Counted from the stretch's first letter, positions 7,034-60,150 are shown. The stretch: DNA of 64,000 nt from Polyangia bacterium (GCA_035696125.1 DASRQZ010000213.1:59048-123047), one strand, 5' to 3'. Notes: a model not told the origin generated them from the sequence alone. Numbers and translations: made by a program.

Positions 7034-7067
7034 CCGTCGGCGTCGGCGTCGGCGTCGGCGTCGGCGG
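7034..7067. repeat. (GTCGGC)5 hexamer array, single arm, intergenic 3' of GT2-TPR gene
   Basis: ccGTCGGCGTCGGCGTCGGCGTCGGCGTCGGCgg, directly read in sequence. Confidence 0.9.
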
Positions 7068-7079
7068 CCTTACCCGCCC

Positions 7080-8705
7080 CTATCGCCCGGCTCCCGCCGG
7101 TCCGGTTTCCTGCGCTGGTACTCCGACGTACTTCACCAGCCACGGAAAATATTCAGCCACCGCCGGCGCCGCTCGTCTCAGGTTCTCCAGCAGCGCCGGG
7201 GGCGTCGCCGAGCCGCGCAGGAGGTCGGCCCAGGCGCGCAGCTCGCGGTGGGCGCTTTGATCGTCCAGGTCCAGGGTCAGCTCGCTGTCGCGACCGGTGA
7301 TGAGGTCACATACCAGCACGCCCAGCGCCGCCTCGGGCAACCCCGGGGCGAGGTCGCTGCACAGGCGGCGCGATCCCTCGATGTCGCCGGTGGCCAGCAG
7401 GGCTTGCGCCAGGCGGATGGCGGTTCGGCCTGCGGGCGGCTCACCGGCGGCGCAGGCCAGCTCGGCGACCGCCACCGCCGGACGGCCGCCGGCCAGCGCG
7501 GCCTCGCCCAGCGCCTCGTGCAGCTCGACGCAGTCCCCGTGCGTGGCCCGGTGCGACTCGGCGAAATCGCGCGCGGCCAGCTCGCCGCCGCGCGCCCGGC
7601 ACAGCAACACCGCCAGCAACAACGCCTCGGGGTCGCGCGGGACGTAGGCCAGCGCCTCCTCCACCCGCCGCCAGGCCTCGCGGGTGTCTCCGACCGACAG
7701 CGCCAGCCGCGCCAGCCCCATCAGCGGGCGCACCGTCGCCAGCTGCTGGTCGGCGGTGACGGCGGCCAGCTCGCGGCAGCGAGCGAAGTCGGCCGCCGCG
7801 GTGATCGACGCGCCGGTCACCTCGCGCAGCTCCCCGCGCCGCAGGAAGAGCGCCGCCGAGGGATCGCACAGGTCGGCCCAGTTGTCGATCAGGCGCAGCG
7901 CTCCCGCGGGGTCACCGGGGTAAAAACCGTCGGCGCACAACACCACGAGATCGCCGCCATAGGGCTTGCCGGCCAGCGCCAGCGGCCCGGCCATCTCCAG
8001 CACGCGCCGGAGCGACCCGGCCGCCTCGCCCCACAGCGCACGGTCATTCCAGAAGCGCGCCAGCTCCAGCAGCTTGAACCACGAGTAAAGGTCGCCCCGG
8101 TCGCGCTCCAGGCACGCCAGCAGGAGCTCGGTGTCGCGCGTCTTCTTGCTGCGCGACTCCGCGCGCTCGCGCACGTAGCCGAGATGCTCGACCAGGCCGG
8201 GCAGGTGGCGCAGGGCGCGCCCATCGGCGTGCAGGCGGGCCTGCACCGCGACGCTGACGTCTTCGTGGATGGGAAAGGTGAAACGCACCGACGGATGGTT
8301 GCGGAACAGCCGCAGCACCGGCGTGTCGCGCCGATGGCCGTGCGGCAGCAGATTGCGCATCACCACCGTGGCCGCGCCCGCACCGGCGTCGTGCAAGAGC
8401 TCCCTCATCTGCTCGAGGAGCTCGGGGCTGACCATCTCGTCGGCGTCGAGGTAAAGGATCCAGTCGCCGGTCGCGCCTTCCAGCCCGGCGTTGCGCGCCG
8501 CCGAGAAGTCGTCGTCCCAGGGACGGTGAATGATCCGCGCGCCCTCGGCCTCGAGGATCGCCACCGTGCCGTCGCGCGAGCCGGTATCGACAACGCACAG
8601 CTCGGTCCACAAGCCGCGCACCTGAGCCAGGCAGCGTGGCAGCAAGGCCGCCTCGTCCCTCACGATCATGCACAGCGACAAGGTGGATGCCGGCGGGTTC
8701 GACAT
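7080..8705 (-). CDS. GT2 glycosyltransferase with C-terminal TPR-like repeats
   Basis: N-terminal GT-A signature LCMIVRDEAALLPRCL...VVDTGSRDGT...LDADE; paralog of 21129-22451; located immediately downstream of fliC-fliD-fliS-fliT-like. Confidence 0.8.
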   Translation of the reverse strand: MSNPPASTLSLCMIVRDEAALLPRCLAQVRGLWTELCVVDTGSRDGTVAILEAEGARIIHRPWDDDFSAARNAGLEGATGDWILYLDADEMVSPELLEQMRELLHDAGAGAATVVMRNLLPHGHRRDTPVLRLFRNHPSVRFTFPIHEDVSVAVQARLHADGRALRHLPGLVEHLGYVRERAESRSKKTRDTELLLACLERDRGDLYSWFKLLELARFWNDRALWGEAAGSLRRVLEMAGPLALAGKPYGGDLVVLCADGFYPGDPAGALRLIDNWADLCDPSAALFLRRGELREVTGASITAAADFARCRELAAVTADQQLATVRPLMGLARLALSVGDTREAWRRVEEALAYVPRDPEALLLAVLLCRARGGELAARDFAESHRATHGDCVELHEALGEAALAGGRPAVAVAELACAAGEPPAGRTAIRLAQALLATGDIEGSRRLCSDLAPGLPEAALGVLVCDLITGRDSELTLDLDDQSAHRELRAWADLLRGSATPPALLENLRRAAPAVAEYFPWLVKYVGVPAQETGPAGAGR

Positions 8706-8719
8706 GGCGGCCTGCGGAT

Positions 8720-57759: not shown

Positions 57760-57862
57760 CCCGCCGGCCCTGTGCCTGCCAACGCCAGGGGTGGGTGGTT
57801 TGGGCACGCCCCCGCTCGCGCCGCCTCAAGCTTCGCAAGCGGCAAGCCGAATTGACTACAGA

Positions 57863-60046
57863 ATGTCCATGCCAGATACCGACGCCAAGACCGATTCACT
57901 GGTTGGCCAGCTCATCGACGGTCGGTATCGAATCTCCCGGGAGATCGCGGTCGGCGGCATGGGCGTGGTGTACGAAGCGAAGCACGCCAAGATAGGACGT
58001 TCGGTCGCGGTCAAGGTGCTGCACCGCGAGATGGCGGGCGACACCGAGGTCGTGGGTCGCTTCCTCAATGAAGCCCGTGCCATGGGGACCATCGGCCATC
58101 CCAACATCGTCGCTTGCACCGATTTCGGCGAGCTGCCCGGCCACCTGCCATACCTTGTTCTGGAGTACCTGGAGGGAAAGACGCTGGGCGAGGCCATCGC
58201 GGCATCGGGCCCCTTCCCGGTCGTGCGCACCCTGCGCATCGCCGCCCAGGTCGCGTCGGCGCTGGAGGCCGCTCATTCGCGCGGCGTGATCCACCGCGAT
58301 CTGACGTCGGGAAACGTGTTCCTCACCAGGACCGACGGCGACTGGGACCACGCCAAGGTCCTCGATTTCGGCATCTCGAAGTTCCTGACCGCGACCGAGG
58401 CCAGCCCCAAGACCCGCCGCGGCTTCACCATGGGAACGCCGGAGTTCATGTCGCCCGAGCAGATCACCCACCCGGATGTCGTGGACGCCCGCGTCGACGT
58501 GTACGCGCTGGGCGTCATCATCTATCACATGCTGTCCGGCAGGACCCCCTTCGGCGGCGTCGCCGTGCAGACCCTGTTCCTGCAAGTGGTCAACGAGCTT
58601 CCTCCACACATCGAGCGGACCGATATCCCGCCCGAGGTGCTGGCCCTGCTCGACAAGGCGCTGTCCAAGAACCCCGACGACCGCTTCGCCAACATGAGAG
58701 AGATGGGGCAGGAGCTGGAGATGCTGGCCCCGGCTCCAGCGCAGATGCTGAGCGGCGCCTACTCGGGTCGCGTCGAAGCGCTCCCGGGCGGCCGCGTCGG
58801 CACCGGCCCGATTCCGGTGCGCTGGAACACCGCCTCGCAAAGGGTGAGGGCCAAGTCTGGCGGGTACCCGGCCGCGAGCCGCACCTCGCTGGTCGAGATG
58901 GCGGCCGCGAAGGCAACCTCCGGCGAACGAACTGGTTCCAGGTCGTCCTCCAAGCTGCTCGCGGGTGCGCTGGGCCTGGCGATCTTTGCCGCCGCCGGCT
59001 GGTTCTTCCTGGGCAGGGGTGACCCGGCGACCACGCGCTCGGGTGTCGCGAGCCAGGCCGGGGGCGCGCCCGTCGCTGCGGTGCCCTCGGGCCCTGTGCT
59101 GTTCCAGGTCTTCTCATCCGCTCCATCGGCGCGGGTCCTGTTCCGCGGGCGCGCCCACCAGATCCCCTTCGCCGAGACGGTGGTGGCCGACGTCAAGCTC
59201 GAGCTGGTTGAGATCACCGCCCCCGGTCGGGAGGGCCGTCGCTTCTGGTTGACCATGGACCATCCCATGCAGCTCACCGTCGACCTTCTGCCCGGCCGCG
59301 GCGTCATCGACGCCACCACCGAGGAGGCCCAGATCGCCCTCGGCGAGCGCACCGCGGCGCCTGCCGCGCCCTCACTCTCCGCGCCACCCGCGACCGCGGC
59401 CGAGGCCGGGACTTTCGCCGGCGCGTCCTCCACCGGTGCCTCTTCACACCGGAGCAGCTCGCGCGGCAAGGTCGTGGTCGCTGCCCTCGCCGCCGCGCCC
59501 AAGGGGGGCAAGGGCACGACCAGCAATTCGGCCCCCGGCCCCACGACCGCACCATCGATCGAGCCGCCCACGCCGCCGCCCCCCGCGCCGTCCGTCCCCG
59601 CCAGGGCCACCGCGCCGGCGCCCGAGCCGGTCGTCGCAGCGCCGCCCTCCGAGGTGGTCCCGCCGCCCGCGCCGCCCAAGGCCGTGGTGCCCGCCCACCC
59701 CGCGCCGGCCGCGGCCTTGGTCCCGAGCAGCGCGTTGGCCGCGTCGCACGTGCCGGTCGGTGGCAGCATCGATTCCGCCAGGGTGCAGCAGGTGTTCAGC
59801 CAGCACCAGGTCGATGTCCAGCGTTGCCACCAGCGCGCCAAGATCGACAACTCCGACGTCCGCGGCAAGCTCAACATGAAGATCGCCGTCTCCCCGTCGG
59901 GACAGGTCACCGCCGCCACCATCGAGTCGTCCAATCTGCACAACCGCGCCCTCGAGGAGTGCGTCGCCGCCGCGGTGCAGAGCTGGTCCTTCCCCGCCCC
60001 CACCGGCGGCCCGGTGACGTTGAGCCACCAGTTCGTGCTGCGCTAG
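57863..60046 (+). CDS. Ser/Thr protein kinase with TM segment and C-terminal Pro/Ala-rich + beta domain
   Basis: Hanks kinase motifs (GGMGVVYEAKH, VAVK, HRDLTSGNVFL, DFGIS, TPEFMSPEQ); start at MSMPD (57863). Confidence 0.85.
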   Translation: MSMPDTDAKTDSLVGQLIDGRYRISREIAVGGMGVVYEAKHAKIGRSVAVKVLHREMAGDTEVVGRFLNEARAMGTIGHPNIVACTDFGELPGHLPYLVLEYLEGKTLGEAIAASGPFPVVRTLRIAAQVASALEAAHSRGVIHRDLTSGNVFLTRTDGDWDHAKVLDFGISKFLTATEASPKTRRGFTMGTPEFMSPEQITHPDVVDARVDVYALGVIIYHMLSGRTPFGGVAVQTLFLQVVNELPPHIERTDIPPEVLALLDKALSKNPDDRFANMREMGQELEMLAPAPAQMLSGAYSGRVEALPGGRVGTGPIPVRWNTASQRVRAKSGGYPAASRTSLVEMAAAKATSGERTGSRSSSKLLAGALGLAIFAAAGWFFLGRGDPATTRSGVASQAGGAPVAAVPSGPVLFQVFSSAPSARVLFRGRAHQIPFAETVVADVKLELVEITAPGREGRRFWLTMDHPMQLTVDLLPGRGVIDATTEEAQIALGERTAAPAAPSLSAPPATAAEAGTFAGASSTGASSHRSSSRGKVVVAALAAAPKGGKGTTSNSAPGPTTAPSIEPPTPPPPAPSVPARATAPAPEPVVAAPPSEVVPPPAPPKAVVPAHPAPAAALVPSSALAASHVPVGGSIDSARVQQVFSQHQVDVQRCHQRAKIDNSDVRGKLNMKIAVSPSGQVTAATIESSNLHNRALEECVAAAVQSWSFPAPTGGPVTLSHQFVLR

Positions 60047-60093
60047 GCGCCGCGGCGTAGCCGCTCGCGGGGGGCTGAGGACAGCCGCCCCAG

Positions 60094-60150
60094 GTGCGCC
60101 CCACGTGCGCCCCACGTGCTCCGATCACGCCGACGCTGACGCCGACGGGG
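60094..60150. repeat. Tandem 11-mer (GTGCGCCCCAC x2) abutting a GATCACGCCGACGCTGACGCCGACGG hexamer module
   Basis: Directly read, intergenic between the kinase stop and the next gene. Confidence 0.85.

Follow-up and report, generated by a model that had tools for sequence, protein, structure and literature searches.

Why should a stretch of myxobacterial DNA carry, at some ten separate places, tandem copies of the hexamer GCCGAC or of its complement GTCGGC, and why should those copies that lie between genes always follow a stop codon? The question is raised by a 64,000-nucleotide segment (GCA_035696125.1 DASRQZ010000213.1:59048-123047; hereafter the window, meaning this whole stretch) of about 70% G+C, whose host is an uncultured soil myxobacterium of the Polyangia (Myxococcota); two proteins encoded in the window are 100% identical to proteins of a Polyangia metagenome-assembled genome. 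[quoted passage not shown] The family is previously undescribed in Myxococcota and represents a variant among interspersed palindromic repeats; searches of the literature on sequence and topic returned no description of it, nor of hairpins made of inverted tandem arrays in that phylum.

A family of hairpin-forming hexamer arrays

With up to one mismatch allowed, the 12-mer GCCGACGCCGAC occurs 61 times in the window compared with 3.7 ± 1.9 times in dinucleotide shuffles, and the matches cluster at exactly the ten loci listed in a preliminary description of this DNA. That description had named codon or G+C bias as an explanation that would undo the family, which the excess over shuffled sequence contradicts. 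Motifs it had reported as common to several copies were recovered as well, namely GATCACGCCGAC at three sites (12024, 36658 and 60123), GGCGTCA(C/G)CGTGGGCG in both orientations (12094, 40758 and 53462 on the plus strand, 22531 on the minus strand), and the loop GGACAGAyCC..GGATCC.ACCGTCGG, exact at 12055 and 23665. Seven loci are intergenic and three coding, an imbalance (at least seven of ten in at most ~15% non-coding DNA) with p = 1e-4.

The copies also resemble one another outside the hexamers. The 16-mer GATCGATCRCGCCGAC, which spans head and arm, is found three times (at 12027, 15731 and 36658) where 0.03 occurrences are expected, and because the coding copies at 15731 and 36658 lie on different strands and in different frames, the likeness is one of DNA and not of protein. 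Copies 40741 and 53445 show 90% identity across a 94-nt stretch that takes in the non-repetitive spacer, and have ~25 nt of right flank in common. Five inverted array pairs occur in the window, against no genuine pair in ~870 kb of other high-G+C genomic loci, which do hold many direct arrays encoding Pro-Thr (PT) linkers. The element at 12027 is identical in an independently assembled Joint Genome Institute (JGI) metagenome contig (L001), to which window positions 10260-14645 correspond without difference. No match to the elements at gathering score was obtained from Rfam; sub-threshold matches were to eukaryotic miRNA-precursor models, which fit any long hairpin, and were rejected.

Each arm comprises about 33 nt in five or six phased hexamers (consensus GTSRSC), in which the tail CCGT lies outermost, the core (CGGCGT)n (n = 3-6) comes next, and the head lies innermost and is of one of two types, CASCGTGGGCGATC or CGGCGATC (full forms CASCGTGGGCG(ATC) and CGGCGAT(C)). 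Arms are paired head to head at 22466, 40741 and 53445, where the heads face a variable spacer of 20-30 nt that is homologous between the latter two copies, and tail to tail at 12027 and 23634, where the tails face the conserved linker GGACAGAyCC..GGATCC; a further copy of this linker lies 3′ of the 22466 element. Both arrangements give stems of 23-35 bp. The copies are as follows, with folding free energies (dG, kcal/mol) and z-scores against shuffles.

7034..7066, minus strand: single arm, (GCCGAC)5 on the minus strand, without an inverted partner; 13 nt after the stop of a GT2-TPR gene (7080-8705, minus), with the start of a PMT-family gene 67 nt away on the arm's other side.
12020..12110: tail-to-tail hairpin, 46 nt after the flgL stop; GATCGATCAC-(GCCGAC)4-GG, loop GACAGACCCTTCCGGATCCAA, CCGT(CGGCGT)3-CACCGTGGGCG; dG -69/-79, z -7.1/-7.6.
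15731..15782, minus strand: coding single arm with head GATCGATCGC in a FlgJ-like rod-binding/M23 peptidase, encoding GSIAPTPTPTPTPTATAT (PTPTPT) in the inter-domain linker.
18796..18824, minus strand: coding array in a FlgA-like protein, giving ADADADADAD right behind the signal peptide.
22465..22590: head-to-head hairpin, beginning 13 nt beyond the second GT2-TPR gene's stop; CCGT(CGGCGT)5-CGAT, spacer, CGCCCACG-(CTGACGCCGACG)2-G, then the GGATCCGGACAGG linker copy; dG -87, z -6.5.
23629..23720: tail-to-tail hairpin closed by GGTATCGCC/GGCGATACC, in a convergent spacer with a DUF4380-like gene (stop 23592) on one side and a small gene of the minus strand on the other; dG -67/-70, z -7.2/-6.6.
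36654..36710, plus strand: coding single arm with head GATCGATCAC, whose minus-strand reading encodes VGGAGVGVSVGVGVID (VGVSVGVGV) in a FliO-like protein.
40681..40868: MITE-like unit with the hexamer hairpin at 40741-40831.
53443..53572: hairpin 3′ of an M16 peptidase gene, 64 nt after its stop and 67 nt before the start of a CDF transporter gene, followed by a degenerate right-hand terminal repeat ATTCGTGGGATTCATCGG; dG -93.5, z -7.0.
60086..60150, plus strand: degenerate single arm, (CGCCCCACGTG)3 followed by GATCACGCCGACGCTGACGCCGACGG, which does not fold; it lies after a Ser/Thr kinase stop (60046) and before GAAACCCGGATATAATC, the conserved promoter-like sequence of the following gene.

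The five folding copies have RNA dG values of -67 to -94 kcal/mol and z-scores of -5.4 to -7.6 on either strand, and a sliding 120-nt fold of the whole window places 12027, 22466, 40741 and 53445 among its nine most stable segments. The preliminary description had taken all intergenic copies for inverted arrays, which is true of five of the seven; those at 7034 and 60123 are single arms that fold no better than shuffles (z +0.75/-0.35 and +0.94/+0.69, respectively, mRNA sense first). As (GTCGGC)n and (GCCGAC)n do not have a common hexamer phase, a lone arm is unable to self-pair by Watson-Crick pairing. The GUCGGC strand can do so through G-U pairs, whereas both single arms present in mRNA the GCCGAC strand, which cannot. 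All arms are GNC-periodic and have a pseudo-coding appearance on both strands. The tandem (CGCCCCACGTG)3 at 60086-60119, which adjoins the 60123 arm, resembles a triplicated, degenerate form of the CGCCCACG head motif.

Copies in other DNA

Metagenomes were scanned with the paired query CCGTCGGCGTC-N55-85-GACGCCGACGG. Among the 120 matches listed, 16 are true hairpins representing 15 distinct loci from soil and rhizosphere, on contigs of ~65-75% G+C without overlap with the window; the remaining ~104 were discarded as chance pairs of 11-mers in high-G+C coding DNA. The arms of these hairpins fit the window consensus while their loops differ, and most of the hairpins have GTGGGCGATC-type heads on both arms.

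Genome contigs were scanned with the arm 20-mer CGTCGGCGTCASCGTGGGCG, and no inverted array partner was present among the matches listed. These matches were rejected as family members, being coding-like and in many cases direct PTVTPT or PTLTPT linkers (Chloroflexota, Actinomycetota and others). On the opposite strand the 20-mer encodes P-T-(V/L)-T-P-T, a sequence found in Pro/Thr-rich linkers of unrelated phyla, often Anaerolineae and Actinomycetota (loci L002-L110).

Evidence for insertion

A large part of the window is taken up by flagellar genes, a region with synteny to related contigs, and relatives with 76-92% protein identity were compared at four sites. The comparison of orthologous spacers, proposed in the preliminary description as a check, revealed presence/absence differences at 23634 and 40741. 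The spacer at 23634 measures 176 nt in the window but 18 nt in two relatives (L232 and L233) and 21 nt in a third (L234), none of which has the element, and the 3′ end of the HDOD gene lacks an element in L236, L237 and L238.

At 40741 the boundaries of the unit can be read directly. An exact 9-bp direct repeat GTTGATAGC (40681-40689 and 40860-40868), the left copy of which holds the HDOD TGA stop, encloses 170 bp of non-coding DNA that begins and ends with the terminal inverted repeats CTGACGAATCCCCGCGAAT (40690-40708) and ATTCGTGGGGATTCGTCAG (40841-40859), 19 bp long with one mismatch and of the type CTGACGAATCCCCRCGAAT. L236 is homologous to the window through the end of the HDOD coding sequence and as far as a single GCTGATCAGC at the stop codon, where the homology ceases, L236 being without the element. 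Judged from sequence, terminal repeats, 9-bp duplication and this empty site together are the signature of an insertion made by a transposase. A hairpin of 240 nt in L234 (11238-11481; also in L235) is bracketed by a near-identical 20-nt terminal repeat, CCTGAGGAACCCCCACAAA... and TTTTCGTGGGGATTCCTCAGG, having TTCGTGGGGATTCsTCAGG in common with 40741, and yet its arms are built of other hexamers (GTGGAC, CTGGAC, GTCGTC and others). Like termini around unlike arrays indicate that the termini are conserved across species and the array interior is not, and among 235 loci a 13-mer of the terminal repeat is confined to the window and L234/L235. On these features (terminal inverted repeats of 19-20 bp conserved across species, 9-bp duplication), at least one subfamily appears to be a MITE. 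A 37-nt difference in length between the L234 and L235 hairpins was dismissed as a polymorphism, as it is a run of N in L235; its location inside the hairpin indicates that such hairpins break short-read assemblies.

Across ~75 kb of syntenic DNA from relatives there is one long hairpin, compared with five in the window, which fits a recent expansion in the window's lineage. A search around all the hairpins for duplicated targets or outer inverted repeats gave extensions that were short and inconsistent except at L167 (18 bp) and L217 (9 bp). The earlier suggestion of insertional targeting of terminators is therefore upheld in part: insertion is supported by the empty orthologous sites, by the terminal repeats with their duplication and by stop-proximal placement, whereas the targeting of terminators is not, the empty sites of relatives having no clear terminator. 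The other suggestion made there, exaptation as factor-independent terminators, has features both for and against it, set out below.

Placement between stop codon and next gene

Genes were called from third-position G+C, taking the longest open reading frame (ORF), a choice that shrinks the distance to the downstream start and makes the placement test conservative. The gene names in the preliminary description (two GT2-TPR genes, flgL, HDOD, M16 peptidase and Ser/Thr kinase) proved correct, as did its statement that all seven intergenic copies lie 3′ of a stop codon; the distances found here are 3-75 nt, including 13 nt for the copy at 7034 after the GT2-TPR gene. Six of the seven spacers concerned are co-directional, the exception being the convergent spacer at 23634, so that a location downstream of a stop is partly automatic and what is informative is where in its spacer the element sits. 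All 12 co-directional spacers (six in the window, six in metagenomes) have the element nearer to the upstream stop than to the downstream start, with a mean fractional position of 0.26 (sign test p = 2.4e-4; Monte Carlo on the mean p = 0.002). Altogether 16 copies have genes on both sides, 12 of them co-directional, three convergent and one divergent (L186). The median distance to the stop is ~22 nt, and several elements begin less than 15 nt from it; in E. coli, REPs closer than 15 nt to a stop can lower expression of the upstream gene.

On the other side, promoter-proximal motifs conserved in relatives are found just 3′ of the element in two spacers, TCAAACGCGGTACGCTTCC before the CDF transporter gene and GAAACCCGGATATAATC before a transglutaminase-like gene. 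Because the elements end just before these motifs, they appear to fill the stretch from the stop to the next promoter.

Proposed origin and alternative explanations

We hypothesise that the elements give rise to copies elsewhere by transposition or by some related process acting on DNA, and that copies would persist between a stop and the next promoter while insertions elsewhere would be removed by selection. A preference for rare A/T-rich targets in a genome of 70% G+C may add to stop-proximal placement, since stop codons are themselves A/T-rich and would be favoured by it; the duplicated target GTTGATAGC at 40741 contains both TGA and TAG. Array length, which differs between copies, most likely changes by slippage, and single arms could come to lie, in frame, within linkers of low complexity in proteins. 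What mobilises the elements, which targets they prefer and how they might affect transcription or mRNA stability are here inferred rather than observed. If the elements are mobile, their terminal repeats point to a transposase, and insertion next to stops in a genome of 70% G+C offers a simple test of target choice against purifying selection.

Several observations weigh against this reading. Terminal repeats and target duplication occur together in a single copy, 40741; the copy at 53445 has a right-hand terminal repeat only, in degenerate form and without a left-hand counterpart, and the other hairpins, which end at CCGTCGG...CCGACGG, have no consistent terminal inverted repeat or target duplication. 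Neither a transposase, among 21 window proteins scanned against Pfam, nor a REP-associated tyrosine transposase (RAYT) was seen within the 64-kb window. The 22466 site in relatives carries other arrays, (CCGAGGT)5 in L232 and (GACGAN)6 in L231, and the 53445 site in L240 another array-armed hairpin, which could equally reflect selection for a hairpin at these positions. Finally, matching the proteins beside the metagenome hairpins to clusters of identical sequences yielded no organism names.

Selection of this kind is the substance of the alternative that the hairpins are functional RNA, either factor-independent terminators of a U-tract-less type or protectors against 3′ exonucleases, retained at the ends of transcription units, with the sequence family reflecting recruitment or convergent turnover and not selfish spread. 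The stability of the hairpins is extreme (dG -67 to -94 kcal/mol) and extends to both strands, such that they could act as obstacles to exonucleases or make RNA polymerase pause or stop, and their location between stop codons and conserved promoter-proximal motifs is where a terminator would be expected. Stems followed by a T-tract are not enriched in two scanned stretches (10 against 6.3 ± 2.6 and 9 against 7.7 ± 3.2 expected), none being at a gene end, and the orthologous M16-peptidase/CDF spacer of L240 has a different strong hairpin (dG -65.5, z -4.6). We nevertheless regard a primary RNA function as unlikely. The flanks of the elements have no T/U tract, and a consensus terminator scan places no site at any of them; two of the seven intergenic loci consist of a lone arm, whose sense RNA does not fold; the head types do not keep to one orientation with respect to the gene upstream; and of 13 copies compared, only 5 have a sense RNA of greater stability than the antisense (Wilcoxon p = 0.89). 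Together these features argue against selection on sense-strand RNA structure, although a symmetric or secondary effect may exist. The lack of strand bias in RNA stability and of a fixed head orientation are both in keeping with an element that acts as DNA. In relatives, moreover, the HDOD and DUF4380 spacers are without any hairpin, the metagenome copy L186 occupies a divergent, promoter-side spacer, and unlinked copies are far more identical than structure alone requires. Should the hairpins end or stabilise transcripts, they would help to explain what delimits transcription units in high-G+C bacteria without canonical terminators.

Symmetry on both strands, the hexamer phasing of the arms, and the mosaic of alternating arm orientations with distinct conserved linkers at tail-to-tail junctions would also suit sites acting at the DNA level, be they protein-binding or structural sites, or cruciform or recombination sites organising the nucleoid or supercoiling at operon ends. 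BIMEs of E. coli bind gyrase, IHF and Pol I; for the present elements we know of no protein partner, and copies are dispensable in close relatives. Such a role seems rather improbable. More remote still is the proposal that the arrays are microsatellite-like expansions of common codons (GCC GAC) at 70% G+C, or artefacts of assembly. It draws on the fit of the hexamer to a GNC codon pattern on both strands, on the three copies that are in-frame linker repeats, on the use of the arm 20-mer to encode PT(V/L)TPT linkers in many phyla, and on the assembly gap within the L235 hairpin. This explanation is already largely refuted by the 61 matches observed against 3.7 in dinucleotide shuffles, by the non-repetitive heads, loops and spacers that copies have in common, by the absence of genuine inverted pairs from the ~870 kb of comparable high-G+C DNA, by the identical 12027 element in the independent JGI contig, and by fifteen further loci from many different metagenomes.

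Comparison with known repeats

Repeats of the REP, BIME and MITE kinds have been well studied in Proteobacteria including E. coli, Pseudomonas and Neisseria. Like the REP, BIME and REPIN (paired REP) sequences of Enterobacteria and Pseudomonas, the hexamer elements are short, G+C-rich, extragenic palindromes with some copies inside genes, and as in BIMEs their units alternate, with distinct head-head and tail-tail linkers. A tagged REP unit is an imperfect palindrome of 20-40 bp with a stem of 8-9 bp, a loop of 4-5 nt and an unpaired GTAG/CGTC tag, and REPs, with which the hexamer elements agree in this, are found for the most part in spacers of co-directional and convergent genes, on the downstream side of coding regions (PMC3733652). 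The stems described here, at 23-35 bp, are three to four times longer than those 8-9 bp, and whereas the REP unit is itself palindromic, the hexamer arm is not and needs a partner arm to form a hairpin. The arms are, moreover, tandem arrays of variable length, and the CGTC at their outer end (C-CGTC-GG) is paired in the stem and part of every hexamer, where in REPs the tag is unpaired. Membership in the CGTC-tagged REP superfamily was rejected, the units not being palindromes and having no unpaired tag. REPINs are mobilised by RAYT transposases, of which none was seen in the 64-kb window.

The copy at 40741 resembles MITEs such as Correia/NEMIS, ERIC/IRU, RUP and Chunjie in its terminal inverted repeats, target duplication, non-coding content, single long hairpin and insertion beside a gene end. 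Most members of the family, by contrast, are without terminal repeats or duplication, and what they have in common is the internal hairpin and not the termini; the interior consists of inverted microsatellite arrays that differ between species behind like terminal repeats. The Rickettsia palindromic elements (RPEs) and intragenic REPs provide a parallel for element-derived, in-frame sequence in tolerant segments, as in the FlgJ-like and FliO-like linkers, but the genes here hold single arms of 33-55 nt only and no whole palindromes. Intrinsic terminators, including the U-tract-less type proposed for high-G+C bacteria, are likewise G+C-rich stem-loops soon after a stop; they are distinguished from the present elements by the latter's lack of a T/U tract, stems several times longer, membership in a sequence family, variable orientation and absence from orthologous sites. 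Integron attC sites were considered and rejected, as the elements have no RYYYAAC...GTTRRRY core sites, end in CCGTCGG/CCGACGG or in terminal repeats, and are flanked by syntenic core genes (flagellar, HDOD, M16 peptidase).

Copies within coding sequences

All three coding copies lie in frame in flagellar proteins, where they form linker repeats of low complexity; their frames or strands all differ. The FlgJ-like linker at 15731 is ~63 aa longer than that of the L231 orthologue, and the arm at 36654 is part of an 18-aa insertion in the FliO-like protein relative to the L238 and L239 orthologues. At the hypervariable position of the FlgA-like protein where the window has (AD)5, the L232 orthologue reads GADADG and L231 (6024-6106) has (APNV)n from a 12-nt tandem array; this linker position is thus one that gathers different tandem arrays in different lineages, as far as can be read from the sequences. 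Coding copies may have arisen by expansion in situ of a pre-existing dipeptide repeat, which for FlgA is the likelier origin.

Conversely, the GNC periodicity of the arms mimics coding sequence and can lead to spurious gene calls as well as assembly gaps. A 104-aa ORF without a Pfam match, called by JGI on L001 (2545-2859; window ~11787-12101), covers most of the 12027 hairpin and is very likely spurious, caused by the codon-like periodicity. The small minus-strand ORF beside the 23634 site is called in several relatives (L232 7503-7709) and looks real.

Other array-armed palindromes

Two further palindromes in the window have arms built wholly or partly of tandem arrays with other periods.

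47141-47520: palindrome of ~380 bp in a convergent spacer after an H+-pyrophosphatase gene; as DNA, dG -167 kcal/mol, z -21.
57605-57755: palindrome of 150 nt between ECF sigma and Ser/Thr kinase genes; as RNA, dG -106 kcal/mol, z -8.9.

The former has outer arms of ~75 nt of unique sequence (CACCCCACCTCCCCC...ACGTTCACTGCGCCTG) and inner pentamer arrays, (GGATC)n and (GATCC/GTCCGATCT)n; a third, partial outer-arm motif (CCCCACCTCCCCCAAGCCCCCC) lies ~200 nt beyond it, at 47706-47730. The latter is closed by CACCGAACGGTTTGAA/TTCAAACCGTTCGGTG and has heptamer arms (GGGCCTC and GAGGCCC). Arrays of the heptamer CCGARGY occur in 3′ spacers of relatives (L232 6452-6510, L240 3044-3150, L241 7725-7765) as well as in the window. 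In L240, of 88% identity, the heptamer hairpin at 3044-3150, unrelated in sequence, replaces the hexamer element of window 53376-53636, the promoter-proximal 40 nt being conserved in both.

The palindromes of the window and the arrays of its relatives together indicate at least three array-armed families in the 3′ spacers of this clade, replacing one another at the same sites. Such replacement may come about because permissive sites receive insertions repeatedly, or because some hairpin is selected for there. A bolder and more doubtful generalisation would make the hexamer family one case of a wider class of array-armed palindromes (period 5, GGATC; 6, GTCGGC; 7, CCGAGGC) that occupy the stop-to-promoter stretch and replace one another at orthologous sites. 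If true, it would imply a dedicated generating or mobilising mechanism, for which an enzyme acting on hairpin DNA is one possibility and slippage combined with hairpin-templated repair that keeps the arms in step another; another possible implication is selection across the clade for 3′ hairpins of very great length that have no U-tract.

Neighbouring gene starts and the FlgI-FlgH spacer

The motif TGTGRTATYCGC is situated ~12 nt 5′ of the ATG of the DUF4380-like gene and is conserved in four species, as listed here.

Window 22600-22635: TGTGRTATYCGC motif site.
L232 6500-6530: the same.
L231 9975-10000: the same.
L234 9975-10000: the same.

The motif may represent an extended -10 promoter or else a leader element, and its conservation indicates that the true start of the DUF4380-like gene is the ATG at 22636 and not the TTG at 22597. 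Within the flagellar region, the FlgI-FlgH spacer (window 17345-17363) contains (GAGAAGCA) repeats, and the orthologous spacer in L234 (47-136) an inverted repeat with 24-nt arms that includes the GAGAAGCA unit; the spacer repeat may be a conserved structure within the flagellar operon.

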